Notes: generated by a model not told the origin, from the letters alone. A stretch of 64,000 nt of DNA from an uncultured Gammaproteobacteria bacterium (GCA_964510885.1 CAZEDL010000002.1:64707-128706); one strand, 5' to 3'; shown: positions 10,141-63,200, numbered from the stretch's first letter. Translations and numbers: made by a program.

Positions 10141-10160
10141 GAAAAATTAAAAATATTTAA

Positions 10161-10190
10161 AACAACTCCGTAATAACGGAGTTGTTTTTA
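10161..10190 (+). terminator. rho-independent terminator
   Basis: aacaactccgt-aata-acggagttgtt followed by TTT. Confidence 0.7.
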
Positions 10191-10324
10191 TGTATCAATC
10201 TCCCTATCGAACTAAGAGAAATTGATAGATTTAGGTGCTTGAGAATGGACGAATTGTCCGCAACGGCACCCACGTCGCTTTACCTTTAGTGACCATTGCG
10301 ATCACTGCTCATCACGCCGCCCTG

Positions 10325-11882: not shown

Positions 11883-11894
11883 ATGTCTGTCTCC

Positions 11895-12750: not shown

Positions 12751-13512
12751 ATGGATATGGGAAACAATGGTGCAACCAACTCTGGAGGAATGCTTCAGGG
12801 ATTATCCCCCAAAGCTTCCTTATTGCTTGGTTTTTTGGCAGCGTTCAGCTTACTGTCGCTCGCGGCCAATATTATTCTCGTCAATCTATTATTAGGCGAC
12901 GGCTCCAGCTATGGCACTCTGCCAGTGGCCGTGGCTCCGGCGCCGAATCCCACACAGCCAACAGCGCCGAGTGACGACACTCCTCCGCCGGTACAAACGT
13001 TTACCGTTACCAAGCAAGACCATGTTAAAGGCCCGGCCAATGCTAAAGTTACCCTGATTGAGTATTCAGATTTCCAGTGCCCCTTCTGTGGCCGTTTCCT
13101 TCCGACTGTACAACAGATTATAAAGGAATATGGCAATAAAGTCCGTTTCGTTTATCGCCATTTCCCCCTGAACAGCATTCATCCGATGGCGCAAAAGGCT
13201 GCTGAAGCCTCGGAATGTGCCAGCGAACAAGGCAAATTCTGGGAGTTTCATGATTTAGCTTTTGCCAACCAAGCCTCTTTATCCCTTGAAAATCTAAAGG
13301 TTTGGGCGACACAACTTGGGCTTAATGCCGGAAAATTCAACACCTGTTTGGATTCTGGAAAATATGCCACCCGGGTTCAGGCTGACCTGACGGAAGGTGA
13401 GCAGAAAGGGGTGTCTGGAACTCCGGCCACCTTTGTAAACGGGCAACTTGTCAGCGGCGCGCTGCCGTTTGAAGCGATGAAACAGATTATCGATCAGGAA
13501 TTGGCCAAATAA
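12751..13512 (+). CDS. DsbA-family thiol:disulfide oxidoreductase (membrane-anchored)
   Basis: N-terminal TM segment and a thioredoxin fold with YSDFQCPFCGRF. Confidence 0.85.
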   Translation: MDMGNNGATNSGGMLQGLSPKASLLLGFLAAFSLLSLAANIILVNLLLGDGSSYGTLPVAVAPAPNPTQPTAPSDDTPPPVQTFTVTKQDHVKGPANAKVTLIEYSDFQCPFCGRFLPTVQQIIKEYGNKVRFVYRHFPLNSIHPMAQKAAEASECASEQGKFWEFHDLAFANQASLSLENLKVWATQLGLNAGKFNTCLDSGKYATRVQADLTEGEQKGVSGTPATFVNGQLVSGALPFEAMKQIIDQELAK

Positions 13513-13565: not shown

Positions 13566-13593
13566 TTGAAATTTTTTGCTAACTACGTATAAT
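13566..13593 (+). promoter_or_regulatory. sigma-70-like promoter (TTGAAA-16-TATAAT)
   Basis: ttgaaa at 13566-71 and tataat at 13588-93. It lies inside the ORF-track N-terminal extension of the next gene, so the real start is probably the ATG at 13621. Confidence 0.5.
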
Positions 13594-13620
13594 AGATTAA
13601 TCAATTCTTACATTACCTCT

Positions 13621-14343
13621 ATGACTAACGAAGAAAAAAAAACTGCCCAGCAAGCTGCCGAGAGAAACGCCAAAACCAAGCGACTGTTACAACGCCTAAT
13701 GTTATGGATTGGGGTACTTGGCATAATAGGATTGGCTATTTATGGCTTGATGCGTCTTGGTGCCAATACTCGGAGCGGCTCTACGCTGCAACCTGGCCAG
13801 AGCATCCCGGCAATTGACGCCAAAGACTCTACGCGCGGCAGCAGTATTGCCAAACTTAGCCTCGTTGAGTACTCAGATTTCCAGTGTCCGGCCTGTGCCA
13901 GCTATGAGCCGCTGCTGCAAGAGGTGCAAAAACAATATGCTGGCAGCGTATTATTCGCGTATCGCCACTTCCCTCTGCCACAGCATCAAAATGCGCTGAT
14001 TGCGGCGACGGCGACCGAAGCAGCCGGCAAACAAGGAAAATTCTGGGAGATGCACGATCTGCTATTTGCACGGCAAGGTGACTGGGCTAACGTGTCAAAA
14101 TCTCGGATTCAGGAGGTCTTTGTGTCTTACGCTAGCCAGATTGCGTTAAACGCTGAGCAATTTAAAAAAGATTTGGCTGATCCCGCCACCGCGACTAAAG
14201 TCACGTCTGATCAGACCATTGGCGCTGCCGCCGGTATCGACAGCACCCCCACCTTTTTCTTGAACGGCAAACTAATCACTCCGAATCCAGCTAATCTTGA
14301 AGAGTTCAAAGAGTTGATTGAGGCGGCGTTAAAAAACAATTAG
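13621..14343 (+). CDS. DsbA-family thiol:disulfide oxidoreductase (second copy)
   Basis: TM anchor and YSDFQCPACASY. The start is revised from 13576 because of the promoter placement. Confidence 0.8.
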   Translation: MTNEEKKTAQQAAERNAKTKRLLQRLMLWIGVLGIIGLAIYGLMRLGANTRSGSTLQPGQSIPAIDAKDSTRGSSIAKLSLVEYSDFQCPACASYEPLLQEVQKQYAGSVLFAYRHFPLPQHQNALIAATATEAAGKQGKFWEMHDLLFARQGDWANVSKSRIQEVFVSYASQIALNAEQFKKDLADPATATKVTSDQTIGAAAGIDSTPTFFLNGKLITPNPANLEEFKELIEAALKNN

Positions 14344-26766: not shown

Positions 26767-29532
26767 ATGCATTATCGTTTTATTTCTTGTGTCCTGCTAT
26801 TATTTACGATTATTTTTATTACCGTCGAGCCACGGGCGACTGCTGCCACTGAGCCCTCGCCTCCTTCTCACCCCAGAATTTTATTGACGACTGACACGAT
26901 GGCCACGCTCAGGAAAAAGATGGCGGCAAAAGACTTGGCTTGGCTGGCCTTACAATCGCAATGCAACTCGGTTGCAGGGAAAGGCGTCGAATATCCGGAT
27001 GGCGAAGATTATAGCAATACAACGCTTGGCGAAGGCTACCAAGGTGAAAATTATTTTGACCCTCTTCTTAACCTTGGGCTCTGTTACCAATTAGTGAAAA
27101 CTACTGATCCCGCGGCGGCCAGTCGCTACGCGAAACGCGGTGTTGAACTACTTGCTAAGATATCTATTCCAAAAGGAAAAACTCATTACCAAGACCCACT
27201 GCGTGACAGTGGCTATGGGATTCGTTTTTTCGGGGTGGGTATGGCTATTGGCTATGATTGGCTGTATGAAGCACTGACACCGGGCGAGCGGACACAAGTA
27301 TATACTTCCTTAAATCATTGGATCGCGGACTTTGAGCGCGCTGGTTTTGGCCGTCAGCATCCCCAAGGGAATTATTTTGCGGGTTACTATGCAGCTAAAG
27401 CGTTAGCCGCCATTGCGACTGCTGGTGATAATCCTACCGCCTCTACACTCTGGGATTCATGGCTTACTACCCAGCATTATGGTTTTGTAGTGCCATATTA
27501 TACCAAGTGGCTGAAGGGTGGGGGTTGGCCGGAGGGGTGGAATTATGGGCCGCTGGGGACTATCAATATGCTGTGGCCAACCATTGGCGCCTTGACCGGT
27601 AAGAATCTGAACCTGATAACTTCTACAGATAAACCGTTTTCTTTCTTAGAAGATCAGGCAGCTTACTTACTGTATTTTCTCTGGCCAAACCAGCGAACAA
27701 TGGATGATCGGGGCGCTCTCTATGCCGGCGATAATCCGGCGGGAGCTAATGTAAAAGTATATACATTTTTAGCCGGGACCCTCAGCCAATTTAATCGCTC
27801 GGACGCAGCCTGGTTTCAGCGACTGAGCCGCGAAGTGCGGGCTAGTAATAGCGCATCTGCAAACCCAGCGTGGGAAGAATTATTATTTTGGGACTCAGAG
27901 AGTCCGGAAGTGGATTACACTACCAAGCCCTTATCGTATGTCGCAACCGGGCTAAATCAGGTAGCGGTGCGCTCGTCATGGAGTTCGGACGCGGTATGGG
28001 CCTCGTTTAGCTCGGGACCGTATATTAATTATCCTGGTTCTGGTGAACAATCTTTTGATCAAGGGGGATTAGCGATCGTAAAAGGTGGTACGCCATTTTT
28101 AGTCAATCCAGCTGGGGCACTATTACGTAATAAAATTCCAGGCAAAGCCGATAAAAATTTTGGCAATGAATTATATGCCGATGCGTACGATACCCGGCCA
28201 CGCACTTTGAACAATGTTTTTTACCCAGGTAAAGGCCAGCTAGCCAACTCTCCGAGCCTATCTTCACCACCTGAAGCGCCACGCACGCGCCTGACGGATT
28301 TTGAAGAAGCGGGAACATATGTCGCCTGGAAAGGAACTGAGCTGGCCGATATGTACCCTGCTAAGACAGCAACGACATGGGATCGTGAAGTAGTCTACCT
28401 GCGGCCAGGTATATTTATTGTTCATGACCAGACAACCATTCCGAACCCAGCAGTTGACCAATATCAAGGCTTTCATCTCACCTATACTCCCGAAGAAATT
28501 GCGGCTCCCGATACGAATAGCCATCGTTTCGCCGTGACTCAAAATGGACAACGTCTTGGTACGGTGACTACGCTTTGGCCAGTGAAAAATAAAACCACGC
28601 TGCGCAATGTTTTTAATAGTAATAAAGTGTACCGGTTGGAAGTACGGCCAAATGAACCCCAAGGAAGTGTGGATTGGTTAACGGTATTTGATGTCACCAC
28701 TACCGACGGACAGACCAACACTCTTAAACGACTGATCCCACTCAGGGGTGCAGGTCAGGGGGTACTGGCTACGGTAACTGGCCGGGCAGCGGCCGTATTG
28801 TTTGTCACTCATCCAACAGAGTTGGTATCGTATACAGTACCTGCGGAGACGACCGAGCACATTGTGACGCAACTTATTCCTGGTAATCGGTATGATATTT
28901 CCACTAAAAAAGTTGGTACGGCTTATGAAATTACGATTGCTCCTGGCACTATGGTAGTGGCCAGCGCCGCGGGCCGACTTCATTTTACAGCTAGTGCTGA
29001 CGGGGTAACGCTGAATCCTGCCTCATCTCCTATCCATCCCACTACCCTACCTCCTAATAATCCGACTACTCCGAGTACTCCTCGAACCACGAAAACTGTG
29101 TATCAATTAAAAAATAATGTGCGTGGCGTTACTTTTTTGACTAGTTCCGAAACAGAAAAAAACCGCCTGTTAGGCAGTCCGCGCATCTGGTCGCTTACTG
29201 ATGAAACGTTTCAGGTCAGTACTGGCAATTGTGAGACTAACAATGAGCTACCGGTGTACCGATTTTCTCGGGCTGATGGCGGTGATTATATGTACACTAA
29301 AAATGTGACTGAAATTGCACTACTAAGCCGGTGGCGTGGCTGGAAAAATAATGGTTCGGTGTTTTGTGCCACCACGACCCGCTCCGATAATAATCTGCCA
29401 GTGTATCGTTTTTATGATCTTAGCCGTAACATTCATGAATTTACGGCCGACCCCGCGATCTATTCCGTTCGGCGCGCGACTCCTGGTCGTTATCGTTATG
29501 AAGGAGTAGCATTTTATGGATTCCCTCGGTAG
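26767..29532 (+). CDS. large secreted protein; possible polysaccharide-lyase (heparinase II/III-like) N-region with C-terminal PVYRF...HxFT repeats
   Basis: Signal peptide, a 921-aa body and two C-terminal LPVYRF... repeat units. The enzyme family assignment is tentative. Confidence 0.4.
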   Translation: MHYRFISCVLLLFTIIFITVEPRATAATEPSPPSHPRILLTTDTMATLRKKMAAKDLAWLALQSQCNSVAGKGVEYPDGEDYSNTTLGEGYQGENYFDPLLNLGLCYQLVKTTDPAAASRYAKRGVELLAKISIPKGKTHYQDPLRDSGYGIRFFGVGMAIGYDWLYEALTPGERTQVYTSLNHWIADFERAGFGRQHPQGNYFAGYYAAKALAAIATAGDNPTASTLWDSWLTTQHYGFVVPYYTKWLKGGGWPEGWNYGPLGTINMLWPTIGALTGKNLNLITSTDKPFSFLEDQAAYLLYFLWPNQRTMDDRGALYAGDNPAGANVKVYTFLAGTLSQFNRSDAAWFQRLSREVRASNSASANPAWEELLFWDSESPEVDYTTKPLSYVATGLNQVAVRSSWSSDAVWASFSSGPYINYPGSGEQSFDQGGLAIVKGGTPFLVNPAGALLRNKIPGKADKNFGNELYADAYDTRPRTLNNVFYPGKGQLANSPSLSSPPEAPRTRLTDFEEAGTYVAWKGTELADMYPAKTATTWDREVVYLRPGIFIVHDQTTIPNPAVDQYQGFHLTYTPEEIAAPDTNSHRFAVTQNGQRLGTVTTLWPVKNKTTLRNVFNSNKVYRLEVRPNEPQGSVDWLTVFDVTTTDGQTNTLKRLIPLRGAGQGVLATVTGRAAAVLFVTHPTELVSYTVPAETTEHIVTQLIPGNRYDISTKKVGTAYEITIAPGTMVVASAAGRLHFTASADGVTLNPASSPIHPTTLPPNNPTTPSTPRTTKTVYQLKNNVRGVTFLTSSETEKNRLLGSPRIWSLTDETFQVSTGNCETNNELPVYRFSRADGGDYMYTKNVTEIALLSRWRGWKNNGSVFCATTTRSDNNLPVYRFYDLSRNIHEFTADPAIYSVRRATPGRYRYEGVAFYGFPR

Positions 29533-32575: not shown

Positions 32576-32707
32576 TTTTATAATTTTTACTCACGGTTTA
32601 TGCCTGCAAATATTTTTTTTTAAAACGAGCAGCTCGGCATAGCCGTTTACCGGAATGGTGCTGCTAATAGATCCTCAAATAATTTATTTTCCGCCCCATT
32701 CGCCGAC

Positions 32708-33082
32708 CTATTCTTCACCCACTGGTTTTTCAGTTTCGCTGACTCGTTTTTCTAGCCGAATCCCCAGTGGCCGGGGACAGATCACTGCACAACGATTCTG
32801 CAAACAGAGCGATGTATATGGACAGCTGGAGCGGATAAGATAGTTTGTGGGTGTAGTGCAGTCACTATGTTGTACACAGGTGGCAGTAGTAACTTCAGCA
32901 ACGTCATACTCATCGCGCGAATAGCCGATGGGCACAGCGGGCGGCTCTTCGTTATTCGCTCGGTAGACTGGGGCGTGATCTGTTTGGCTGGGGCTAACAG
33001 CTTTTTCCGGCAGCACTTTATATCCTACCCCGACTGATACCATTAGGATAGCGGCAATGAGAAAATATTTTTTATATGTCAT
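32708..33082 (-). CDS. small Cys-rich secreted protein
   Basis: N-terminal TM/signal region and 7 Cys in the last 45 residues. Confidence 0.5.
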   Translation of the reverse strand: MTYKKYFLIAAILMVSVGVGYKVLPEKAVSPSQTDHAPVYRANNEEPPAVPIGYSRDEYDVAEVTTATCVQHSDCTTPTNYLIRSSCPYTSLCLQNRCAVICPRPLGIRLEKRVSETEKPVGEE

Positions 33083-33131: not shown

Positions 33132-33878
33132 TTAGATAGCCAAAAACCAGAAGAATGGTTTTACTATGGAGGCGAATAACCGAAACACATAGAGTACGAA
33201 TGGTTTCGAGTTGTTGGATAGGCTGGGAAACTTTGGAACCCCGTTGTCACCAGGTGAATCTGGCGTGACAGAAGATATAGCAACTGTTGCTGGTAAAAAC
33301 TTCTGGGAAGGATTCGGCTGCGGCGCGACCAGCTGTGCCAAGGCATGGTAAGACACGGAGCCAGAATTTATAAACTTGAGCCCGGTCAAGAATTTTGGTA
33401 AAGGACTATTCGTTACCGGCACGCGCAGCGAGGGACTACTGCGGCCTTCGGGAGCAGCAGTATACGATGGTAGCGGAAAATAACCGCCGGCTTCGCCCAG
33501 AACAGACGACGTTGATGCTGCCTGACCGACGGTGGGGTCGCCCGGGCAATAAAACTTGCCAGCGGTGGTAGACATGGTACACCCCGAGAGGCTTGATCCG
33601 TTGCTAAAATTCTGTCCGCCACCAGACCCTCCGGTTGTTTGACTTAACGGTAAAAAAATTATAGCGGCGGCGGTTCCAGCACTTGTATAGCCGTTTCCAG
33701 ATACAATCTGAGCCGATGGGTTGCCACCGGCTTCAGCACTGAAACCATTGCCGGACACCACGCCGCCTACTGCATTCACCTGCCCGTCGATAGTATAGCC
33801 ACCGCCAGTCTGTGCAGCCAAAACAGTAGCCGGAAACATGGCGAGAGTGAAAGCAAAAATAAAGAAAAACTTAGTCAC
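33132..33878 (-). CDS. secreted Gly/Ser-rich protein
   Basis: Signal peptide MTKFFFIFAFTLAMFPATVLAAQ followed by a low-complexity G/S/T-rich body. Confidence 0.5.
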   Translation of the reverse strand: MTKFFFIFAFTLAMFPATVLAAQTGGGYTIDGQVNAVGGVVSGNGFSAEAGGNPSAQIVSGNGYTSAGTAAAIIFLPLSQTTGGSGGGQNFSNGSSLSGCTMSTTAGKFYCPGDPTVGQAASTSSVLGEAGGYFPLPSYTAAPEGRSSPSLRVPVTNSPLPKFLTGLKFINSGSVSYHALAQLVAPQPNPSQKFLPATVAISSVTPDSPGDNGVPKFPSLSNNSKPFVLYVFRLFASIVKPFFWFLAI

Positions 33879-33879
33879 A

Positions 33880-34281
33880 TTATTTTTTTAGAGGCAATAC
33901 ACCGGAATTCAGCTCAAACGGACCCGAATTAACAATGATGTGTCGAGAGGAACTATAGATAACGGCTTTTTTGGCAATCGGAAAGATGATCAATATATCG
34001 CCAGTCTTGGCTCCGCGGTAGAATGACTGCTCATGCGTGAGGGTAGCGGCGTCAGAAATAGTAGCAATAATCGGGCGCTCGTTTGGAATGAGCATTAAGC
34101 GGCCCACTGCTTCGATCACTCGGGCCCGATCATCAGAACCAAAATTTGTCGCTGTACTTACGCGCGTGAAATGCATGGCACCAAGCAGCAATAACACAAC
34201 AAGCAAAATTCCGGCGCCGATTGAAATAGGGCTCAGGTGAAATTTTAATCGAGTGATGGCGCTAGCTAAGCGGTGCGACAT
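33880..34281 (-). CDS. single-TM hypothetical protein
   Basis: 133-aa ORF with an N-terminal TM helix, tightly spaced with its neighbours. Confidence 0.45.
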   Translation of the reverse strand: MSHRLASAITRLKFHLSPISIGAGILLVVLLLLGAMHFTRVSTATNFGSDDRARVIEAVGRLMLIPNERPIIATISDAATLTHEQSFYRGAKTGDILIIFPIAKKAVIYSSSRHIIVNSGPFELNSGVLPLKK

Positions 34282-34284
34282 ACA

Positions 34285-34764
34285 TTATCGTTTGGTAGCA
34301 GTTGGGGTGACAGCGGGCAGGCGCACCCGGGGTTTAACAGGCGCAGTTACCGGTGCTGGCGCTGGAACTTTTGGTTCGTCACGATTCACTGCCGCTACTG
34401 CCATAATTTTTTTAGTGCGCGGCCGATAGAGAATAGCTTGAGTTTCAAAAATTATTATATAATCGCCGGCTGCAGCTTTGGCAAAAAATAGCTGGTCTTT
34501 TGGCAGTTTTTCAACTTCAGATACCACGGCAATCTGCGGAACGCCGGCCGGCAATTCTATAATTTTTCCTACATCATGGAGCACCTTGGCAGTTACTTCT
34601 TCGGCTAATTTTTCTTGATAGGCCGGATTTTTAAACTGGTACAGCCGATAGCTTGAGTAAACGGCGATTGTGGTAACTGCAGCCCCGCCTATAATTAAAG
34701 CGGTCACCAGAATAGTTTGCCACTTTTTTTTAGGCTGAAGTGGAGCCAGGTTTGCTTCCTCCAT
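34285..34764 (-). CDS. single-TM hypothetical protein with Pro/Ala-rich tail
   Basis: N-terminal TM helix and a C-terminal PAPAPVTAPVKP tail. Confidence 0.45.
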   Translation of the reverse strand: MEEANLAPLQPKKKWQTILVTALIIGGAAVTTIAVYSSYRLYQFKNPAYQEKLAEEVTAKVLHDVGKIIELPAGVPQIAVVSEVEKLPKDQLFFAKAAAGDYIIIFETQAILYRPRTKKIMAVAAVNRDEPKVPAPAPVTAPVKPRVRLPAVTPTATKR

Positions 34765-34791: not shown

Positions 34792-37700
34792 CTAAGGTGT
34801 AGACGTGACAACCAGTTCTTCTAACGGCTGAGACGTTAGTTCGAGAGGGGCAGGTTCGTCGGTCTCTTTTTCCGGAGATGACTCCCCTGTTAATGGAGCT
34901 GGTTCAATGAGTGGTGGTGTGAGTGGCGTGGCTGGAACAGCAGCAGGATCTACTATTGCCGCCGGTGGAACCAAACGATTCGATTCTGCCTGAAGTAACT
35001 GCTCTAATTTGTCACCAGTAATACAGACTTCACCGCCAGCTGATTTTTTGAGGCACAACTGATCAGCATGAATTTTTTTGGCAAACAGCTCCGTGAAGTA
35101 TCCCCGCACGGCCGAGATCCGAGCCGCTACGAAATCAGTGAGGACTTTGTGGCCAGCGCTCATTTTTTTACTGATAATTACAATTGGGTCGCTCGCTACT
35201 TCAGACTGAATAGTGGAGATGAGGCTCGCGATACCAGTGTCGGAAGTCGGCGTAATATCCCCGAGCAGTACTTGCTGGTCTTGAATAGATTGCACAAGGA
35301 GCGGGGTGAGGCGACCATAATCAACTGCCCACGGATCAGTTTCAGCATCTACGCCGCCCACCGAAACGACTTGCGGAAAAATATCATACAATTCTTGGGC
35401 AATAAAGCCTTGCTGCACTTTACCAGGGGCGGAAATAAAATTAAAATCACGGACTTTTATTTTAAGTAACGTGTCGAGCCCGTGCGCGGTGGCGGTTACA
35501 TTTTCCTTGCGCCTGGCATCTGAAGTGGTAGGGCACGTAACACCCCCGGCATTGTCGCCTTGACACTGCCCAAGCAGCGTGCCGTCACCATCGATAAAAC
35601 GAATAAAATGATTGGTCGTATTAGGATTAGCGTTTGGCCCAAGCTGGATACCAATCCCATCGGCATCGACCGTATTATTGGTATTGCGAAAAGTAAAACC
35701 GGTAGAGGCAATGCCAGTGGTGAAATTCTGAATACCGGTGCCGGCGTTAAAATTGAGGGCTGTGGCACCAGTCGTGTTACCAATAGTGACGGTATTAGCA
35801 ACACTGCCGGTACCGATGTTAATGATTTTACTACCAGTGCCACCAGTTCCGAAATTGAGTGTTTGCGCACCGGTGCCGGTGCCAATGCTGATTGCGCCGG
35901 TTTGGGCGCCGGTGCCACCGATATTAATGACACCGGTAGTCATGGAGTTGCCGATCAAAATAGAACCGGCGTTTTGAGTATTACCAAGACCAACAGAGTT
36001 GGCCGCAGTACCGCCAATGGTAATAGTTTGCACTGCGGCTGATGTACCGATATTTATGGCCCGGGACACGGCATTGGTGCCAATATTGATTGCACCGGTT
36101 CCCGCGATTAAACTAAGCGAGGTGGCCCCGGTACCATTACCGATGGTGATAGTTTTTGCACTGAAAGCTGTACCAATATTGAGCGCACCAGTCGTACCAC
36201 TATCGAGAGACAGGGTGGTGGCATTGCCAGAGCGCAGTGTGAGCGCACCACCACCGGTAATAGTAGCATTGGCGGCGCCGAACCCAATCGTGGTGGCAGC
36301 CCCACCAATATTAAGAGTGGTGGCAGCCGTATTAAAAAGCGCAGCCGTGTTGTTAGTAGTGCTCAGCGTGCCGCCATTGAGGCTCAGAGCGCCAGATATC
36401 GTAATATTGCTACCATTATTTTGCAGCGCTGCAGAACGCACCCAATCGGTGCCATCGAAATACATCGTATCATTCGCAACTTCTCCACTCAAAGAAATTT
36501 TGGCACCACTGATTGCATTATTGATGATATCTGTGCCGGCAATCGTATCGGTTAGATTTAGTTTACTATAGGCGATATCTGCACCATCAGCAATGTCATC
36601 ATTAACGATACTGTTGTTAACAATTTTACTCGAATCAACGGAATCGGTAGCTAATTTGGCGAGCGTGACATTAGCATTAAGAATTTTACTAGTGGTCACA
36701 GCATCATTAGCAAGCTTGGCAGTGGTGACAGCCAGGTCATTTAGTTTTTCTGTTACAACGGCGAGATCGGCTAGCTTGCCCGCAGTCACTCCAAGGTCAG
36801 CCAATTTCGCTGTGGTAATGGCTGCGTCCAAAACTTTTACGGTCGTAACTGCATCAGCGGCCAGCTTACCCGCGGTCACCGCTAGATCATTAATTTTGGC
36901 AGTCGTGACAGTTAAATCAGCGAGTTTGGCTGTTTCGACTGCGCCATCGGCCAATTTGGCAGCGGTAACGGCAGCCGCTTGTAGCTTGGCGGTTGAAACA
37001 CTGACATTAGCCAGCTTGCTCGTATCTACCGAGGCATTTACCAGCTTACTCGTGTCTACAGAATCTGTGGCCAGCTTATCAAGCGTTACCGCAAGGTCGG
37101 CCAGCTTGCCAGTCGTGACTGCAAGATCATTAATTTTGGCGGTGGTAATAGCATTATTTATCAGCTGATTAGTTGCCACCGTATTAGCTGCTATTTTGAG
37201 GGTCGTAACTGCACCATCGGCTAATTTGCTTTCAGTAATGGCTGCATCTTGGAGATTGCTGGTGTCGATTGACTGCGCGGTAAGTGTAGCTAGCCCCCCG
37301 GCGGTAACCGTGAGATCACCGGATACTGTTTGTCCGGTGGGAACATTACTCCCATTCCCAATAAAAATTTGCCCAGTTGGGAGAGTGGCCGCTTGTTTAT
37401 TGTTGAAGGCAGTCCAGTCAGCGGCCGAGAGAAAACCATCGGTCGTGGCTCCGGCTTCGGCCAATCCTAATACTCCGGATGCGCTGTCGTAAGAGAGTGG
37501 TGCACCAGATACCGAGAGGGCGCTACGGGCGCGGGCCGTCGAAAAATATTGGTTAACTGCACCTTCGGTAAGATCATCGGTAGTTTTAGTAGCAAGGCGG
37601 GCATCAAAACGAGCTGTGGTGTAATACAGATTATTACCTCCTTCCGACAAATCATCGGTTGTTTTGGTAGCAAAATCGGCAGCAAAGAGGCTGCTGGCAT

Positions 37701-38442
37701 AATATTTATTAGATGTACCTTCGGCTAAATCATTGCTGGTTTTAGCGTTAAAACGAGTGTCGAATAAGCTATCAAACAAAGCCATCACCCGGGCATCAGC
37801 CCGCGTGTCGGTAAAGTAGCGATTCGTAGCCCCTTCGCTCACCTGATCGGTGGTGTAATCGCCGCTCGTCGCTACCACAGCTCCAGTGCGGGTATTAAAT
37901 GAAGTCACGCCAGTCGGGGGTCCAGCTTGGAGTCCTTGCCAAGCAGCGCCGTCATACACATAAATAGTGTTGTCGTCGGTATCAAAATATAATTCTCCTG
38001 GGGTGGCCGTGGTTGGCGGAGCGGACTGAGCCACGAGGCCGTAGGATGTGTGGGCATAGGCCACCGCATTAATTGCGGTGCGCGGCGACATTTCACCGGT
38101 ACCAAGGGTAGTAATCTCTAAACTTAAAAAATACTGCCTATCAAATGGTAAGGCAGCAATTGATGTATAGGTTCCGCCGAGATGGGTGCCCGTGCCGATG
38201 GCAACTGAAAAATAGCCATTTGAGAGGCTGGTGCCCGGATGAGTTTCATCAAGTAGCAGTGTACCCCCGGCGGCGGCGTCGTAGATACGGGTACGAATAA
38301 TATGCGAACCAGACTGAGGAGATCCCGCAGAATTAGTCACGTAGCCATCGTAACCAATAGTTTGTGGAGCGGCCAATGCTAAGGCTGGCGCCAAAATGGT
38401 TGCTCCTACAAATATACTGAGTAAGAATCGTGAAAAAGCCAT
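34792..38442 (-). CDS. giant secreted repeat protein with C-terminal tail-fibre intramolecular chaperone (peptidase S74) domain
   Basis: Signal peptide and about 25 tandem 11-residue repeats (…AVTTAKLADLAVT…). The S74 signature is SDARRKENV...GFIAQELYDIFPQVV, followed by a further ~200 aa. Confidence 0.8.
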   Translation of the reverse strand: MAFSRFLLSIFVGATILAPALALAAPQTIGYDGYVTNSAGSPQSGSHIIRTRIYDAAAGGTLLLDETHPGTSLSNGYFSVAIGTGTHLGGTYTSIAALPFDRQYFLSLEITTLGTGEMSPRTAINAVAYAHTSYGLVAQSAPPTTATPGELYFDTDDNTIYVYDGAAWQGLQAGPPTGVTSFNTRTGAVVATSGDYTTDQVSEGATNRYFTDTRADARVMALFDSLFDTRFNAKTSNDLAEGTSNKYYASSLFAADFATKTTDDLSEGGNNLYYTTARFDARLATKTTDDLTEGAVNQYFSTARARSALSVSGAPLSYDSASGVLGLAEAGATTDGFLSAADWTAFNNKQAATLPTGQIFIGNGSNVPTGQTVSGDLTVTAGGLATLTAQSIDTSNLQDAAITESKLADGAVTTLKIAANTVATNQLINNAITTAKINDLAVTTGKLADLAVTLDKLATDSVDTSKLVNASVDTSKLANVSVSTAKLQAAAVTAAKLADGAVETAKLADLTVTTAKINDLAVTAGKLAADAVTTVKVLDAAITTAKLADLGVTAGKLADLAVVTEKLNDLAVTTAKLANDAVTTSKILNANVTLAKLATDSVDSSKIVNNSIVNDDIADGADIAYSKLNLTDTIAGTDIINNAISGAKISLSGEVANDTMYFDGTDWVRSAALQNNGSNITISGALSLNGGTLSTTNNTAALFNTAATTLNIGGAATTIGFGAANATITGGGALTLRSGNATTLSLDSGTTGALNIGTAFSAKTITIGNGTGATSLSLIAGTGAINIGTNAVSRAINIGTSAAVQTITIGGTAANSVGLGNTQNAGSILIGNSMTTGVINIGGTGAQTGAISIGTGTGAQTLNFGTGGTGSKIINIGTGSVANTVTIGNTTGATALNFNAGTGIQNFTTGIASTGFTFRNTNNTVDADGIGIQLGPNANPNTTNHFIRFIDGDGTLLGQCQGDNAGGVTCPTTSDARRKENVTATAHGLDTLLKIKVRDFNFISAPGKVQQGFIAQELYDIFPQVVSVGGVDAETDPWAVDYGRLTPLLVQSIQDQQVLLGDITPTSDTGIASLISTIQSEVASDPIVIISKKMSAGHKVLTDFVAARISAVRGYFTELFAKKIHADQLCLKKSAGGEVCITGDKLEQLLQAESNRLVPPAAIVDPAAVPATPLTPPLIEPAPLTGESSPEKETDEPAPLELTSQPLEELVVTSTP

Positions 38443-38820
38443 GTTTACAAATCAAAGGGTGATAATCTTAAAGAATGGCTAACTTTAGTACAAAATTGGC
38501 AATATGTCAAACCTAATACACGTGGTATAGCAAAATTTTGGCTATATGTAAAGGAAAAAGATATTTAGCACCTCCTTCTTTTCTCGTTCGACTTTCTTTA
38601 TCCATAATAGAAATACTCCCTGATTGGGGAGTATTTCTAGTTAGAGCGGGTGAGGGGAACCCTTTCAGGGAATCGAACTCGCTTCGCTCCCATGGGAACC
38701 TTCGGGTTCCCATGCACCTTCCTCAACATGAGAAAACTCTCGTTTTCTCCCTTTCCAGGTTCGGCTCCTTCATCCAAACTACAAATACAAACCTCCCTTT
38801 TTGAGGGAGGTTTGTATTTG

Positions 38821-38892
38821 AGCGGGTGAGGGGAGTCGAACCCCTGTCACCAGTTTGGAAAACTGGGATAATAGCCGTTATATGACACCCGC
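38821..38892 (-). tRNA. tRNA-Gly (anticodon UCC)
   Basis: Reverse complement GCGGGTG...CCAGT-TTTCCAA-ACTGG...AGGGG-TTCGACT-CCCCT-CACCCGC-T with a cloverleaf, U73 discriminator and no encoded CCA. The D-stem is imperfect. Confidence 0.6.
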
Positions 38893-48851: not shown

Positions 48852-49595
48852 CTATTTTCGCTTTGCCACCACCAGCCAATCAAAAGCCACATCGGCGGTT
48901 CCCTCTGTTACTTCTTTAACTTTAAAACCGTGGATACTTTTGCTTATGATATATAGACCCTGGGGATTAGATGTATTTTGAGTAAGGCTAATTTTTAACG
49001 GAGCATTGGGATCTATGATTTCGCTTGTGGCTTTGGTGAAGGCGACTGTGGCACTACCGTTGACCAGGTTGGCAGAACCGGAAAAAATAAACTCACTCAG
49101 TGGTGATTGAGTGACAAACGTCTCTTTAGATTCCACAGCTGCGGCGGATTGATGATTAACATAGCCGTGCGCATCAATCGACCACCTGTTGTCTATGTTA
49201 CTATTGGCCTGGCTATCGCCATTAGGCATTTGCTGATTAACTACCAGACGGCTATTAGAGACCCTCACCGCAAGCGATTCGCCCGCATCGAAGGCTACGG
49301 TTCGGGCACTGAATTCTTTGAGAGTTCTTGGCTTATTATATATCGGTTTAGCAGATATAGTTGTTGCCTTTTTTTCAGCTTCGTTTGGTGTTCCATTGCG
49401 CATCCATCGTGTCGTAAAATTTTTAACTATGCTATCAAACCTAACGTGTGGGGCTAGATATTTACCAATAATACCAGCTATTAATAAACAAGCACCAAGG
49501 CACATTACGAAGCCTTGTATCCCTTGTTTTGATTTTTTCTTATGCATACGTGATAACCGAACTCTATTTTTTATCGCTCTCCTGGTTAGCATCAA
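48852..49595 (-). CDS. hypothetical membrane-anchored/secreted protein
   Basis: 247 aa with an N-terminal TM segment and no recognised motif. Confidence 0.45.
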   Translation of the reverse strand: MMLTRRAIKNRVRLSRMHKKKSKQGIQGFVMCLGACLLIAGIIGKYLAPHVRFDSIVKNFTTRWMRNGTPNEAEKKATTISAKPIYNKPRTLKEFSARTVAFDAGESLAVRVSNSRLVVNQQMPNGDSQANSNIDNRWSIDAHGYVNHQSAAAVESKETFVTQSPLSEFIFSGSANLVNGSATVAFTKATSEIIDPNAPLKISLTQNTSNPQGLYIISKSIHGFKVKEVTEGTADVAFDWLVVAKRK

Positions 49596-52530
49596 TCCCT
49601 GTAACCGGGGTTGACTCAGTTTTTTTAACTAATCCGACATTATCGCGAATCGTATCAATTTCCTTGCCGCTCAGATTGATTTCAGCACCTTTGTTTGACT
49701 GATATTCCTTGTGCTCATAGGTAACATAAAACCGATTATCCCCTGCTAAAAAGTAATACCGGCCTTTGGCATCAGTAATCTGAGTAGATATAAGCTTATT
49801 GAATTGAGCGCTAAATAAACGGGCCACAGCTCGGCCAATGGGCTTTTTATTGCTGGCATCATAGACAATTCCCCAACTTTTTGGCCTGGGCGGCATGGCT
49901 AAACGACGGAACACAACGGTGATAATAATGTGGCCGGCAAGCAACGCACCGACATACCATTTGGGCGAAATGTAAAAGGAGACAGCTGTAGCCACCAGAC
50001 CAACCAACGATACGACACCTTGGATGCGACGACCAATTTTTTCGAGAGCCAGCCGCCGCGGCAGCTTAATTTCACCAGCCGGATCGAGTGGAATATTAGC
50101 TGTAATGGCTGGATATCTTTCATTTACTTGTAATAATTCACCATGATACACATCGGCCCGGCGCCCATCGGCTGTGAAGTTTTTAAGCAAACTTGAAGGA
50201 AAGCTCATTTTATCTTTCACTACTTCAAGACGGTAGCTACCGGGATTGGCGGTAAAATAATAACGACCGTTTTTATCGGTAACGCGAGACTGTATCACTT
50301 TACCGGTCGCACGATCTACCAACCGAACAATTGCCAAATCGATCGGTAATTTAGTCAATGCATTATAAACCTGGCCCCACCCCTCGCGCTTACGCTTACC
50401 GATCAAGAGCACTGGCTGCAAGAACAGCAGTTTAAGAAGCGGCAACAAATCACCCCAGGGGATAAAAGCGACGGACGAGGCGGTAGCCGCAGTGACTGCG
50501 GTTGGCGCCACTACGGTGCTGGCCGCTTGTTCGATTTGCGGGTCATTCGATAAATTTTGTAATAATTTTATAGTTGCCTGTGTTTGATCTGAAAAATTTT
50601 TAATGACATTTTTAAGATTTTCCGGCAGCGTCTTATCAAAATCGATTACGTCGCGCAATTTGCGTGGACGAGCTACCAGCTGGATCGATTCGTTAAATAC
50701 ATTATCGTTAGCAGACACGAGCCGGCTTGAAAAATCTAGATACCCCGGAGCTGAAAATTTGGCATAATACTTTCCTTCTGGAAGCACCCAGCCATACCGA
50801 CCCTCTGACGCTGTGACAATAGTGGTTTTTTGGGCGTATTCACTAAGCGGAATCGGAGCATTATTTTGACCGAATAGATTTACCGAAACTCCGGCTAGTG
50901 CATCGCCAGTAGCGGCATCACTAACCCGGCCCCACGGACGACTACTCAAGGCAAGCGGAATTGATTCTAGCTCAGAATTACCATAATCAACAATTATAAA
51001 AGCTTGGTAAGTTCCTACCGGCGGAAACACCAGGTCGGTACTATACTGGTGCCGCGCTTCATCAAAACGAAACTGGTAGGTGCCATAATTAGAAACTGCC
51101 AAGGTAATTTCGGCTGGTTTTCTTGTCATTGCTTCACGCGAAATGACTATCGAAAAATTATAGCCAGAGAGATTAGCAATCGTAAGACCATTCAACGCAA
51201 GCGACACCGTCCGATCAGCCGCTAAAAACCTAAATCGTTCAAGCTCAATTTTGGGTTCACCAAATACAATTGTGCTAGTTACTTCGCTAAGCGGAATCGT
51301 GCTTGTACCACTTGGTCGTACAGGATTATCTGGTTCCGGCCCAGGATTCTTCGGCAGGCAGGCGCTCGAAAGTTTACACACATCATCTGCACAATCGGTA
51401 GCTGCATTTGAGTCGTCATCGCGACCATTGTCGCAGATCTCTTCTCCCGGAGGAGGCGCAATTTCGACGCTCGAAAACGTGCCAGCACTAACATTGCCTG
51501 AGGTGTCAACGGAAAAAGCGGTGTAAAAATATTTGATATTTGGCTCTACATCAGAATCGACGAACTGTTCATCTGTGCCAGTGTACACCAGGCTGCCTTC
51601 GTTCATTCCTGCGGCCGGAGCCCCGATTGTTTTGATAATGCGGACTTCTTTAAAATCAGCCGCTGCAACAGCTGTTGGATTTTTCCAACTGACAATAATT
51701 GATGTGCCGAGTGCTACCGCTTTCAAGCTAGATACATCTGGAGGCGGAAGTTTTTCTTTGTCTGTCGTGAATGTAGAATCCGACGTGGCCTGGCTAACCC
51801 CGCTTTCATCGGTAGCAATAATGCGAAAATGGTAAACGGTATTAGGTGTTAGGTCAGATAAAAATTGCTCATGACTTAACGAACGAACAGCGGTGACAAC
51901 GCTTGTGCCGTAACTGCTGGTGAGACCGTACTGGATTTCACTGCTGGTAAGTTTGTCGGTATTCCAGACAATCGTGGCTGCTTTGGCGCTTGGGTTTACT
52001 GACACGAGAGTAATAATCGGCGGGGACACTGCTGTGTCAGCAGCGGTGGTGAACATGCCGGTTTGAATTGTAGTTTGATTAGCTGTATCTGTGACACTAA
52101 TTTTAAAATAGTACAAAGTGTTGGTGGCGAGCCCCGAAAGCGCTACCTGATATGATCCTGTGACGGGAGCGCCAGAGCCGTACATGGTGGTGAGGCCGTA
52201 CTCAAATCTATTCGCCGATAAACCATTATCGTCGCTAGCACTCCACACTACGGTGGCGGTCGTCTCGGTTACTACCTTGTTCACTCCGGTAATGGTAGGC
52301 GGTGTGTCAACCGGCGGGGGCGGGGGTGTTACATTTCGACCCGATGACCCGCTACCCCCATCATCGGAATTATTATTACTGTTATTGTTTGAAGACGGAA
52401 CAGTCATTTGAACATTGATGGTTCCGGAACCGGTAGCGGCCAAAGCATAATTTGAAGTCTCAGCCACCACAAAAAAAATCCCGTTCAAAAGGACAAACGA
52501 TACTAGCAATGCAATCCATGACTGCTTCAT
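49564..52530 (-). CDS. giant surface protein with FN3-like and carboxypeptidase-regulatory-like (CarbopepD_reg) domains and C-terminal TM segments
   Basis: Signal peptide, an Asn-rich linker and FN3-like repeats (...TLYYFKISVTD...). CarbopepD-like units: TDKNGRYYFTANPGSYRLEV and TDAKGRYYF. Confidence 0.6.
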   Translation of the reverse strand: MKQSWIALLVSFVLLNGIFFVVAETSNYALAATGSGTINVQMTVPSSNNNSNNNSDDGGSGSSGRNVTPPPPPVDTPPTITGVNKVVTETTATVVWSASDDNGLSANRFEYGLTTMYGSGAPVTGSYQVALSGLATNTLYYFKISVTDTANQTTIQTGMFTTAADTAVSPPIITLVSVNPSAKAATIVWNTDKLTSSEIQYGLTSSYGTSVVTAVRSLSHEQFLSDLTPNTVYHFRIIATDESGVSQATSDSTFTTDKEKLPPPDVSSLKAVALGTSIIVSWKNPTAVAAADFKEVRIIKTIGAPAAGMNEGSLVYTGTDEQFVDSDVEPNIKYFYTAFSVDTSGNVSAGTFSSVEIAPPPGEEICDNGRDDDSNAATDCADDVCKLSSACLPKNPGPEPDNPVRPSGTSTIPLSEVTSTIVFGEPKIELERFRFLAADRTVSLALNGLTIANLSGYNFSIVISREAMTRKPAEITLAVSNYGTYQFRFDEARHQYSTDLVFPPVGTYQAFIIVDYGNSELESIPLALSSRPWGRVSDAATGDALAGVSVNLFGQNNAPIPLSEYAQKTTIVTASEGRYGWVLPEGKYYAKFSAPGYLDFSSRLVSANDNVFNESIQLVARPRKLRDVIDFDKTLPENLKNVIKNFSDQTQATIKLLQNLSNDPQIEQAASTVVAPTAVTAATASSVAFIPWGDLLPLLKLLFLQPVLLIGKRKREGWGQVYNALTKLPIDLAIVRLVDRATGKVIQSRVTDKNGRYYFTANPGSYRLEVVKDKMSFPSSLLKNFTADGRRADVYHGELLQVNERYPAITANIPLDPAGEIKLPRRLALEKIGRRIQGVVSLVGLVATAVSFYISPKWYVGALLAGHIIITVVFRRLAMPPRPKSWGIVYDASNKKPIGRAVARLFSAQFNKLISTQITDAKGRYYFLAGDNRFYVTYEHKEYQSNKGAEINLSGKEIDTIRDNVGLVKKTESTPVTGIDANQESDKK

Positions 52531-60259: not shown

Positions 60260-63200
60260 ATGAGAGGCAGACGTGCGTACGACAGCGAAGCGTTGCTTAT
60301 ACCCGAACAACAAGAAACACGCTTCGAGCAAGCGCGCCAAAAGCTGGCCGATTTTTTAGCGACCCCGTACCAAACGTACATTGAAAACTCACAGGCACAA
60401 GGAAAATTTTCTGATTTTTCTATTAACGAAGCGCGCTTTGACGATTGGACCGAAGAGGCTGATCTATACCATCAAGTGGGAGAAACATTACAAGGCATTC
60501 GGAATGAATTGAGGCAACACTTACAAGAAATAGTAGCCGAAGCTAGACAGGCAAGGAAGTTACCAGAGGCTATCGATCACATTAAAAATTTATTGCTTGA
60601 AGACCATTTGGACGAACAGAGCATGCCAGCTATTTTTAAAGTCGGGAAACCGTTTCCAGGAACAGACATCGTTGCAGTCTATGAAGAGTACCTACATACC
60701 GAAACTGATAACGAGCAAACATTTCGCTCTTATTATTATGAAGATATTGTTGAGACACTGGGGACATGCGGATCAGAAGCTCAACCGACCATTGTTGAGT
60801 GCTTAGCAGACATAGATACTATCCGATTTTTAAACAAACAAATCTACAAGCTGGGAAAAAATATTAGTCCCGAAGAATTTAATGCCAAATATGAGGCCTG
60901 GGTAAGCGAAAATAATGTGTACGAATCTGATGAGGGCGGACATTGGGGAGAAGGGATAATGCTCGATGATTTGAATCGGGGTGGCTTGACCAGCTATTTT
61001 TTAATGGAAGATAAACATTATAAGGATACGGCTTTCGGAAAAGCAGTCTTGTCCGGACTTGTCGCCCTAAGCGCTAGTAACGCTGGAGTTCACGATAAAG
61101 TTCGGGCCTATGCGCTTAATAAAATCCTAACCACTCCCGAGGCTTCTGCAGATTTGTACCCGCCTATTAACAACCTGCTGAACCAAGCCCCTGCGGCGGC
61201 TGGCAAGGAGCTGATGGAAAAAATTCAAACGACCGAAGACCGGCTGACAAAAGTACTAGCCACCCGGCTTTTATATCGCTTAGAGCTAGGAAAGATCGGC
61301 ATGTCAGAGCGCGGAGTAAATTATTTGGGAAAAACATTTGACCTCGGGGAATATAATCGCCCGGAATACTCCGCTCATCGCGCTACAGGCGATGGCCAGG
61401 TGGCAGTATTTGACAACCAACAGCACGCGATTGGTTTTTTTCAATTGCGCGACTTAGATTCTCCCGAGATTGTTTTGCAAGCACGGCTACTTGATTTTAC
61501 CCATGCGACCCTGTTTCATACGAACCCCAATGAAACCGAGGCTGAGCGGACAGAGCGCGAGCAGATTCTACAAGAATTCAAAGCCAATTATTTTAAAACC
61601 TATCTCACTGATTTCGGACAAGAAACTGGTGTCATGTTCAACAATCTGAGCTTCCGGGAGCAAGGTTGGTTTTTGTGGTATATGCAACACGCTCCAAGCG
61701 AGGATCGAGCACGGGCTATAACGTTTATAAAAACGTACCACGAACCGGGCTTTAGATTGTTTGTCGCTCTTGAAACAGATAAAGCGGCTGGCAGCAAACT
61801 TCTTGATCTAGCTGATCGCCTGACTCCCCAAGAAATGACTGGGCTAATTGAAGACTACCAGCGGGTCGCTGGTCGAGTCGAATTAATAGCGGCCGAAGTG
61901 AGCGCAGACTTCGAACCAGAAGACCTACACAATGAAGTGCTGATTCAGGGGCTCCTGGTGCGCGCCAAAGATCTACTCGCTACCACTCACCGCCGTATCA
62001 CTGACGGAGAAACACCTGCTGTCGTGCTGCATGATATTCATACAGAATTCCGAGCTGAATCCAGTCGCCAGAGCGCTCTGTCTGGCTTATTCCGTAACAC
62101 CGCCGAGCTGGTCGGTGCACATGAGGCGGGCAGTATCGACCTGGCACGCTATGCTCGCGAACAAGATATTCTGGCCAGTGAAATGAAAAAACAAGATGGC
62201 CTGGGACTGTTTCTTCGTGCGCTTGGATCACGCGGCGTACTTAGACCTATACCGGAAATTCATTGGCGCGTGGATCGAAATTCAGAAGAATACAAACGCC
62301 GTTTGGGCGTAGATGTCATGGGGCTACTCAAAGCTCTTGGAGAGCCGGGCAAAAAAAAGTTACTCCTAGAGTTTGGCCCGGGGAGCGGTAAAAGTCGAGC
62401 AGAGCGAGCACAGGCTGGGCTTGGAAATCAGTATACAGATATTATCATGGCCGATAGCATATACTATCCGGTGAACACATTGATTGAAAAATTATTTGAT
62501 TGGGAAAAATTGGAAGCAGCGAGCGGTGGCACATTATCTGCAGAAGAGCGGTCCGTTCTCTCTGACGCGATCTATAAAATACTCATGATAGCAGATGGTC
62601 AAACCGCCGAGGATAAATTTGAATACAGCGCCGAACGGTTGCAACAATTAACGCGAGACCCCAACGCTCTCAAAGAATTACTCCCACAGGCCGCAGCCCG
62701 ACTGAAAAATATTTCTCTAGTACCCGATACGATCAGCTCTCGCGATAGCGCCGGGCACGTGATTTACCCATATAAAATTAATCTCACTGTCGCCGGTGGG
62801 CGCTCCGCAGCATTTGAAGCGGCCAAACAAACGCTGGCCCATACTCCGGCTAGGTTTCTACGCCAAGATATTGCCGAACGCGATCTCTATCATGAAATTC
62901 CAGCTTTTCCAGCCGGAGTAGTAGTCAGTGACTTTTCTAATATCAACCAATTACGAGATAGCAGCATTGATGTGGCCATGGGCGTGCGTTCGACCGTCTA
63001 CAAACGCGATACAGAATACGAGTCTTTTATGGCGACCATGGCTGACAAGCTAAGCTCGAGCGGTATCTATATCGACGACAATGTTCGTGACAATGATGGG
63101 TGGCGCTCGCGTATGGCCGAATTGGCTCGAGTAGCCAAAACACTGCGTGAACGGCGAGGACCAGTAGGCTCAGAAGTACGCCTGCAATTGGCGCTCGGCC

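Follow-up and report, generated by a model that had tools for sequence, protein, structure and literature searches.

The window described here is a 64,000-nucleotide stretch of contig CAZEDL010000002.1 (64707-128706, assembly GCA_964510885.1), and its subject is a minus-strand gene for a long modular protein, referred to below as the fibre, together with the string of small genes that follows it. The fibre carries a Sec-type signal peptide, a beta-rich N-terminal domain (N-domain), a repeat shaft of phage type, a Peptidase_S74 (S74) chaperone and a C-terminal module that we call Cmod. Its open reading frame (ORF) is laid out as follows, with positions counted from the first letter of the window and residues given in amino acids (aa).

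34792..38442 (-), fibre gene, ORF of 1216 aa; the end coordinate takes in the stop codon
38371..38442 (-), Sec-type signal peptide, aa 1-24; MAFSR, then a hydrophobic core up to ALA↓A, from sequence inspection
37903..38370 (-), beta-rich N-domain, aa 25-180; beta-sandwich at aa ~29-124 and Mtd_N-like beta motif at aa 137-171 (PGELYFDTDDNTIYVYDGAAWQ)
37258..37902 (-), shaft region, aa 181-395; ~26-aa repeats TTDDLxEGxxNxYYTxxR and a GFLSAADWTAFNNKQ motif
36478..37257 (-), ~25 tandem decapeptide repeats, aa 396-655; consensus LADLAVTTAK, 30-bp period
35524..36477 (-), Gly/Thr/Ala-rich region, aa 656-973; presumed beta-helical distal part, ending at the predicted cleavage site
35257..35523 (-), Peptidase_S74 intramolecular chaperone/protease core, aa 974-1062; Pfam PF13884
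35521-35523 (-), predicted catalytic Ser974 of the S-D-x-x-x-K motif
35506-35508 (-), predicted catalytic Lys979 of the S-D-x-x-x-K motif
34975..35256 (-), Cmod, aa 1063-1156; helices, Cys1130-Cys1140 beta-hairpin and final helix, ~94 aa
34795..34974 (-), Pro/Glu/Thr-rich low-complexity tail, aa 1157-1216, from composition

The 1216-aa reading frame proposed by a first-pass annotation of the window is present in the ORF list, and the secretion that the annotation claimed for its product agrees with an N-terminus resembling a Sec signal peptide. By inspection only, the sequence MAFSRFLLSIFVGATILAPALALA↓AP combines an n-region bearing Arg5 with a hydrophobic core and ALA↓A at aa 22-25. AlphaFold2 (AF2) models a helix at aa 2-16, and the alignments of homologues begin just past the signal peptide.

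A single curated family matches the N-domain that follows. This is NCBIfam NF053851 Bdello_MAT_N (E 1.7e-10; 41 bits with the domain alone, 29.6 bits with the full sequence), which is described as 'mosaic adhesive trimer family chimeric fiber protein' (mosaic adhesive trimer, MAT), and the same model is matched by 29/29 members of the N-domain alignment. Conversely, the family profile of the N-domain picks up fibre-like ORFs at their N-termini in Bacteriovorax (4.8e-6), Bdellovibrionales (1e-4) and Pseudobdellovibrionaceae (3e-4), and it scores higher in Elusimicrobia, Bacteroidota, Fibrobacterales, Roizmanbacteria and Moraniibacteriota. The domain is common to 8,688 representative proteins at E <= 1e-3 (545 at <= 1e-10) and is nearly always N-terminal, in proteins of 170-3287 aa. 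An AF2 model of aa 1-180 (predicted local distance difference test score, pLDDT, of 87) shows a beta-sandwich and a small beta motif carrying a weak Mtd_N match; it had no significant structural neighbour in the PDB. This and all other AF2 models reported here are monomers. The profile matches argue for a distant homology of the N-domain with the Bdellovibrio MAT N-domain.

The weak Mtd_N match falls on the motif PGxLYFxTxxxxLYVYxGxxW at the end of the N-domain (window 37930-38030, aa ~137-171), which also occurs in 5-19 tandem copies in other large proteins (P0247-P0257; P numbers denote the 391 stored homologous proteins and L numbers the fetched relative loci). The match had prompted the idea that the fibre is the target of a diversity-generating retroelement (DGR), which was dropped: no reverse transcriptase was present among the window ORFs scanned, and the fibre is without a C-type lectin tip. 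Single-sequence searches of the N- and C-terminal parts against the PDB returned matches (K-channel, orf16) that were judged to be chance or weak, the orf16 match, 9EG4, being an uninformative capsid entry of Legionella phage LME-1.

Beyond the N-domain, the shaft begins with a ~26-aa unit (TTDDLxEGxxNxYYT) in three to four copies at aa ~191-310, with an autocorrelation peak at lag 26. The motifs of aa 181-395 are also found in a Bacteriovorax fibre (L010), and proteins of Paceibacterota and Bacteroidota carry them in multiple copies. The central repeats had been described in the first-pass annotation as ~25 near-perfect tandem 11-mers with a ~33-bp periodicity in the DNA. Their number holds at about 25 units, but the period is 10 aa: protein autocorrelation over aa 401-660 peaks at lags 10, 20, 30 and 40 (0.36-0.39; 0.39 at lag 10), and DNA autocorrelation is 0.47 at lag 30 as compared with 0.31, the background, at lag 33, with TRF likewise returning a period of 30. 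Nor are the units near-perfect, with a mean between-unit identity of 36% in protein and 46% in DNA. Since the repeats have diverged and the longest exact DNA repeat within the fibre gene is 17 bp, a collapse or expansion of the array through assembly error is unlikely.

The decapeptide region matches the PHROG tail-fibre families phrog_28766 (2.7e-39) and phrog_892 (4e-31). Moreover, 217 of 50,697 phage records match the fibre, only over aa ~390-650 and at 36-49% identity, among them T7-like cyanophage tail fibres (S-TIP37, S-CBP4, P-GSP1) and minor tail proteins of Gordonia phages; the decapeptide module alone is held in common with these, and the ends differ. Judged by these matches, the decapeptide shaft is a genuine phage tail-fibre module. 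The Pfam family PF25296, Decapeptide repeat region, stayed below threshold in the fibre (11.3 bits against a cut-off of 45) and is carried by some homologues (P0008). The Gly/Thr/Ala-rich region that follows shows NIGT..TITIG motifs in its composition and has homologous counterparts at the same place in P0241 and P0023; its pre-cleavage motif, F-x-x-x-G-x-x-x-G, aligns with that of other S74 proteins.

A profile search placed Pfam PF13884 at aa 974-1026 (39.6 bits against a gathering score of 22), and S974-D-A-R-R-K979 has the SDxxxK spacing of the catalytic dyad, so that both the S74 domain and its serine are present as first proposed. The S-D-x-x-x-K motif is kept in 11/12 S74-bearing homologues in the C-terminal alignment. 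In searches with the C-terminal profile, solved structures of tail fibres (6F45, 4.5e-11; 8JOV, 1.3e-10), the T5 L-shaped fibre (8HQZ, 1.5e-9), myelin regulatory factor (MyRF; 7DC3, 8e-8) and GA-1 (3GUD, 3e-5) were matched, with the Ser/Lys motif aligned (SDRRIK and SDERLK in solved fibres). The AF2 model of aa 939-1160 reaches a pLDDT of 82-88 over the S74 core and 70 overall. With this model, the top three Foldseek matches are chains of the MyRF ICA domain 7DC3 (probability 1.0, E 1.5e-3, TM 0.52-0.55 on the target). They are its only meaningful structural matches, and the fit is modest because the model is a monomer with an overall pLDDT of 70. Cleavage is predicted between T973 and S974.

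The ~200-aa extension originally noted after S74 exists but is a composite of the helical end of the S74 chaperone (to ~aa 1062), Cmod and a 60-aa tail. Beyond aa 1062 the fibre has 154 residues, whereas ordinary S74 proteins in the hit set stop ~15 residues after the equivalent position. Cmod (..LISTIQSE..DFVAARISAVRGYFTELFAKKIHADQLCLKK..GGEVCITGDKLEQLL) had no match in Pfam, NCBIfam or the PDB, and used alone as the query of a word-index homologue search it returned none. It was traced instead by local phmmer on the stored proteins and by a pattern scan of metagenomes with the Cmod alignment, which yielded 56 loci. Among the stored proteins Cmod forms the extreme C-terminus of 18 others, with or without S74, and the Pro/Glu/Thr-rich tail always follows it. 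S74 directly precedes Cmod in eight of the 18 at the phmmer threshold and, in a divergent form recognisable by eye, in three more (P0295, P0315, P0046); a different penultimate domain or a LamG-like tip takes that position in P0241, P0242, P0023, P0261, P0276 and P0279. The cysteines C1130 and C1140 are invariant. In the AF2 model, the hairpin and final helix of Cmod have a pLDDT of 88-91 and its helices one of 54-63.

Five of the relatives without S74 (P0241, P0261, P0276, P0279, P0023) hold in its place a conserved pre-Cmod domain (..LGVISTRPGILLGG....VAFSGRVPV.VS.ENG.V..GD.LT.SS.PGYAMK..) for which Pfam gave no match, and which may be another type of C-terminal maturation domain. Most Cmod proteins in the metagenome loci are without a MAT-like N-domain, and many begin with a signal peptide and a 'ATIYQPGETLEPDCAPGSANCGV' motif (L040, L045, L050, L056, L083, L085 and further loci), apparently a second type of N-terminal module serving the same C-terminal system. 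A PEP-CTERM (exosortase substrate) signal is absent from the fibre, whose C-terminus, ...LEELVVTSTP, has neither a transmembrane (TM) helix nor a basic tail. Elsewhere in the window, two adjacent genes encode DsbA-like thioredoxins (12751-13512 and 13576-14343, +); extracytoplasmic disulfide formation would fit the Cys pair of Cmod and a Cys-rich small protein encoded at 32708-33082.

That small protein belongs to a tight string of genes downstream of the fibre, which, with its flanking signals, comprises the following.

34285..34764 (-), partner A, 159 aa; membrane protein with one TM helix, N-in, and ~85 aa of extracytoplasmic domain
33880..34281 (-), partner B, 133 aa; paralogue of A, N-in single-pass TM protein with an ~85-aa outside domain
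33132..33878 (-), partner C, 248 aa; begins with a signal peptide, carries the 'SG(N/G)GY' unit three times and is hydrophobic at its C-terminal end
32708..33082 (-), fourth small gene of the string, 124 aa, TM and Cys-rich; from the ORF list
38482..38510 (-), promoter-like TTGACA-17-TAAAGT, 40 bp upstream of the start codon of the fibre gene; consensus scan only
32630..32645 (-), terminator-like hairpin after the fourth small gene, the last of the string; consensus scan only

The gaps within the string are operon-like (27, 3, 1 and 49 bp). The first-pass annotation had described the neighbours of the fibre as small secreted or membrane proteins, a description that stands but that missed their being conserved partners, collinear and homologous in relatives. 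The order fibre-A-B-C is collinear in L029 and L031, and on the contigs of P0023 and of P0241 three small genes homologous to A, B and C come after the fibre gene. In L029, L031 and L033 the gene immediately after the related fibre has a product 43-49% identical to partner A; B, which shares 29% identity with A (E 1e-9), is 49% identical to its counterpart in L029 and 41% to that in L031; and the N-terminal ~70 aa of C are conserved and collinear in L029 and L031 at 38-42% identity. The fourth small gene had no tblastn match in any fetched locus, and A, B and C had no significant sequence match in Pfam, NCBIfam, PHROG or the PDB.

These partners are coupled to the two ends of the fibre. In a local annotation with profile hidden Markov models, a gene of the family of A and B (AB) lies directly downstream of 33/55 Cmod genes, the 55 counted being those with at least 500 bp of contig remaining. 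Seen from the other side, 43/43 AB ORFs in the ~0.5 Mb of fetched loci are downstream of a Cmod gene, nearly all of them directly; L089 has a gap of ~1.1 kb between the two. Most of the Cmod proteins in these loci are without a MAT-like N-domain, and Cmod-AB is therefore a linkage in its own right. A C-like gene adjoins 8/8 close N-domain fibre genes (window, L029, L031-L035, L086), including L035, where it is present though both Cmod and an AB gene are absent, and it is next to 0/17 5'-complete Cmod genes without that N-domain. The C-termini of the C-like proteins are varied envelope anchors, with a TM segment and basic tail, a peptidoglycan (PG)-binding-like part or dockerin-like repeats.

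In some loci without AB, the Cmod gene is followed by one for a secreted protein with repeated 'GWINF/GWISF' motifs (L030 3518-4633, with a weak PG_binding_1 match; L059 2199-3245; L072 8526-9224), which may be an alternative partner. L031 holds, at 6330-7936, beside the cassette of the closest relative, an exosortase (EpsH) gene and one for a 215-aa protein ending in PEP-CTERM-like VPEF, a TM segment and RMKK, neither of which is in the window; a link between exosortase and the fibre cassette was dropped, this being its only occurrence.

The exact fibre protein occurs once in a collection of 5.8 billion proteins. The remaining matches there cover 8-46% of the query, chiefly the decapeptide region, and include proteins of the Candidate Phyla Radiation (CPR) as well as proteins labelled phage minor structural or tail spike. 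A scan of GTDB genomes gave only partial matches to single modules. Local phmmer with six segments of the fibre against the 391 stored homologues set Cmod apart as a distinct module. The family is mosaic: P0241, P0242 and P0023 have both ends in common with the fibre and differ in their middles and tips. The N-domains of P0241 and P0242 are 56-58% identical to that of the window fibre (P0241, 56%), and P0023 comes nearest at both ends (N-domain 1e-53, Cmod 2e-31), together with P0241. The same six segments showed no paralogue elsewhere in the window. No Pfam match to the YadA-type C-terminal beta-barrel of trimeric autotransporter adhesins was seen in the fibre at E <= 1, and its C-terminus, modelled as helical with a hairpin and a low-complexity tail, is unlike that of those adhesins.

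The surrounding sequence is chromosomal. Proteins named Candidatus Magasanikbacteria share 85% identity with RpoB of the window (best match 94%), and the window carries rpoB, ftsK, recA, recQ, EF-P, epmA-like and S6-SSB-S18 genes; by this identity and these housekeeping genes, the locus is assigned to a CPR (Candidatus Magasanikbacteria) chromosome. Pfam and PHROG scans of the flanking proteins found only housekeeping functions, a sigma factor and a methyltransferase, with no phage structural genes among the neighbours, as had been claimed. GC content is even across the fibre gene, with no anomaly. Pattern-limited searches of IMG/VR viral contigs gave 0 confirmed matches each for the N-domain and Cmod. 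Together with the Sec signal peptide and the MAT-related N-domain, this context supports the first-pass view of a cellular fibre on a phage scaffold. Two features upstream of the fibre gene bear on the question of integration.

38820-38892 (-), tRNA-Gly(tcc), 378 bp upstream of the fibre gene
38644-38657 (-), 14-nt exact copy of the tRNA-Gly 3' end (CCCCTCACCCGCTC), 176 bp downstream of the tRNA and preceded by a T-loop-like GAGTTCGATTCCC

A stem-loop follows both the tRNA-Gly 3' end and its 14-nt copy. The repeat was rejected as an island border, there being only two copies, 176 bp apart and not bracketing the cassette, with no third in the window; a fragment of the tRNA or the scar of an old integration may account for it.

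The closest described systems are the MAT fibres of Bdellovibrio. These have a signal peptide, a conserved beta-rich N-domain of ~130 aa and a trimeric fibre displayed on the surface of the predator (Caulton et al. 2024, PMC10769870). Their invariant N-domain, which has no PDB homologue per Caulton et al., is taken as cell-proximal, and they end in S74 with SDxxxK in 13/21 members of strain HD100 and otherwise in other tips (PMC10769870). The S74 subgroup of Bdellovibrio bacteriovorus (Bd3182) shares with the window fibre the signal peptide followed by a beta-rich N-domain without a PDB homologue, the long fibre (~1000 aa or more) of phage-fibre modules, the C-terminal S74 with SDxxxK and the mosaic exchange of middle and tip among relatives, those of the window fibre with the same N-domain bearing other tips. 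In both cases the producer would live on other bacteria, which for CPR is an assumption from general knowledge. A Bacteriovorax protein of 2022 aa (L010) is collinear with the window fibre in its N-domain, DWTAFNNKQ and NLYFT motifs and C-terminal S74. The window fibre differs from MAT proteins in that its N-domain is only distantly related, its producer is a CPR bacterium and S74 is not C-terminal, Cmod and the acidic tail coming after it. It also lies in an operon with A/B and the SGNGY protein (C), none of which was seen in the fetched flanks (<=10 kb) of the Bdellovibrionota loci. The MAT-like proteins of Supplementary Table S3 come from Oligoflexia, PVC, Micavibrio, Bradymonadales, Myxococcales, the FCB group and Omnitrophica, and none is from CPR (PMC10769870). 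Our literature searches returned no paper linking S74 or MAT fibres with CPR; the CPR lineage, the extra C-terminal module and the conserved partner genes are not described in the literature searched.

Phage S74 fibres and tailspikes (K1F endosialidase, T5 pb1 8HQZ/4UW8, GA-1 3GUD) have the same S74 Ser/Lys dyad at the end of a trimeric beta-fibre, with profile E-values from 1.5e-9 to 3e-5. The window protein, in contrast, is no virion component; it has a Sec signal peptide, a cellular context and an extra 154 aa past the chaperone core. MyRF ICA (7DC3), the best structural match, resembles it in that the S74-type domain is not the end of the protein in either. MyRF, however, is a transcription factor of eukaryotes, and what remains of it C-terminally is a transmembrane segment, whereas the remainder of the window fibre is a soluble module with a genetic link to a membrane protein encoded by another gene.

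From what was observed here, namely its domains, the conserved motifs, the linkage of genes and a context that is cellular and not that of a phage, we consider the locus likely to encode a Sec-exported, MAT-like surface fibre of a CPR bacterium (Candidatus Magasanikbacteria), matured by S74 and served by dedicated partners; the trimer, the cleavage, the polarity, the roles of the partners and host binding are our predictions. CPR cells are generally taken to be monoderm-like episymbionts. From N- to C-terminus the plan would comprise the signal peptide, a presumably cell-proximal N-domain, the phage-module shaft and the S74 chaperone. By analogy with phage proteins bearing C-terminal intramolecular chaperone domains (CIMCD) and with Bd3182, S74 would bring three chains into register from the C-terminus, nucleate trimerisation and then cut itself off between T973 and S974 through the Ser974/Lys979 dyad. 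Cleavage would free a 243-aa C-terminal fragment (chaperone, Cmod and acidic tail) and leave a mature fibre of ~950 aa (aa 25-973), the distal end of which would be exposed and bind a component of the host-cell surface. The genetic coupling of Cmod to A/B suggests that, while the fibre is being assembled, Cmod is captured by or docks on the A and B ectodomains at the membrane, which perhaps gathers three newly exported C-termini, and that of the N-domain to C suggests that C is an anchor or adaptor for the fibre base, holding the N-domain. Attachment to the host is inferred from the experimentally studied MAT fibres of Bdellovibrio (PMC10769870).

Several observations weigh against this reading. 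The 5.8-billion-protein collection holds no full-length orthologue of the fibre by which the conservation of this particular architecture could be gauged. The Bdello_MAT_N score of 41 bits is below the 60-bit cut-off, so that strict membership of that family is not established; the match spans only model positions 5-81 of 162, and the Bacteriovorax fibre protein does not match the model. The coupling of Cmod to AB is not universal, 22/55 Cmod genes having no detectable downstream AB gene. In Cmod proteins without S74 (P0241, P0242, P0023) the module would stay attached, and an anchor role for Cmod fits as well as an assembly role, so that either polarity would suit. The Magasanikbacteria are uncultured, and that they live as episymbionts is an assumption based on what is generally known of CPR.

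The point about Cmod leads to a reversed polarity, in which Cmod on A/B would be a permanent cell-proximal anchor, the N-domain would be distal, and cleavage by S74 would shed the fibre in the manner of MyRF, whose S74/ICA domain parts an N-terminal trimer from C-terminal sequence that stays tethered to the membrane. The tight linkage of Cmod to membrane proteins, the presence of Cmod on proteins without S74 and the structural match to 7DC3 would all suit it. It is the poorer fit, since the domains that vary and resemble tips (LamG-like, LVIVD propeller, beta-helix) adjoin Cmod and not the N-domain, which would put variable binding domains against the membrane; with the invariant N-domain of MAT fibres also taken as cell-proximal, we think this arrangement unlikely. 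A separate reading is a dedicated and hitherto undescribed two-ended CPR docking system for phage-derived trimeric fibres, in which A/B would recognise Cmod and gather three chains at the Sec exit so that S74 can trimerise them, release by autoproteolysis would be MyRF-like and an envelope-anchored C would hold the N-domain, its interchangeable anchors (TM, PG-binding, dockerin-like) adapting the same fibre base to different envelopes. We offer this scheme tentatively, as possible but doubtful.

Two further explanations dispense with a cellular adhesive fibre. A prophage or tailocin remnant, in which a tail-fibre gene left after integration at the tRNA-Gly would have no cellular role, can draw on two modules usual in phage tail fibres, the decapeptide repeats and S74, and on the tRNA-Gly 378 bp upstream, a 14-nt copy of whose 3' end lies 176 bp downstream of the tRNA; yet that repeat does not bracket the cassette, the flanks hold no phage structural, integrase or lysis genes and composition is uniform. 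Virion fibres, moreover, are without a Sec signal peptide such as this protein has, pattern-limited searches of viral contigs turned up neither the N-domain nor Cmod, and the same fibre-A-B-C cassette stands in different chromosomal contexts of other genomes, all of which makes a remnant barely credible. A secreted tailspike-like polysaccharide depolymerase, with a beta-helical region before S74 that would degrade host or environmental glycans after S74-assisted trimerisation, is quite improbable: no glycosidase or lyase family matches anywhere in the fibre at E <= 1, the Gly/Thr/Ala-rich region is without an obvious catalytic motif, and the long repeat shaft and conserved N-domain suit a fibre. 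Such an enzyme would be in keeping with the S74 chaperones themselves, which are frequent on tailspikes that act as enzymes and whose first description came from endosialidases, and with the neighbouring gene at 26767-29532, which encodes a secreted DUF5648 protein. Bd3182 also resembles the P22 tailspike (PMC10769870).

Little is known of how CPR/Patescibacteria recognise and hold their hosts beyond type IV pili. Read as a MAT-like surface fibre, the locus is a concrete, sequence-defined candidate for CPR host attachment, with a plan homologous to that of the fibres by which Bdellovibrio recognises prey, phage-derived modules that can be swapped and a predicted self-cleaving maturation. The presence of the N-domain in 8,688 representative proteins and many phyla suggests that MAT-like fibres may be a general tool of bacteria living on other cells. 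The Cmod-A/B and N-domain-C linkages may also point to the still-unidentified anchor of MAT fibres; if two-ended docking holds, C would itself be a candidate for what MAT N-domains bind at the surface.

Other features of the window stand apart from the fibre cassette. GC content rises to 0.61 at 10001-12000, against ~0.48 elsewhere, a compositional anomaly; this stretch holds a 592-aa ORF (10325-12103, -) whose only match is a C-terminal NUDIX domain, and several long overlapping ORFs on both strands. Three other large proteins of the window, none of which has a segment in common with the fibre, are probably exported or surface-located: one of 921 aa with a C-terminal DUF5648 (26767-29532, +), one of 1063 aa with no Pfam match (60260-63451, +) and one of 988 aa with CarboxypepD_reg, SdrD-B and Fn3-like repeats (49564-52530, -).

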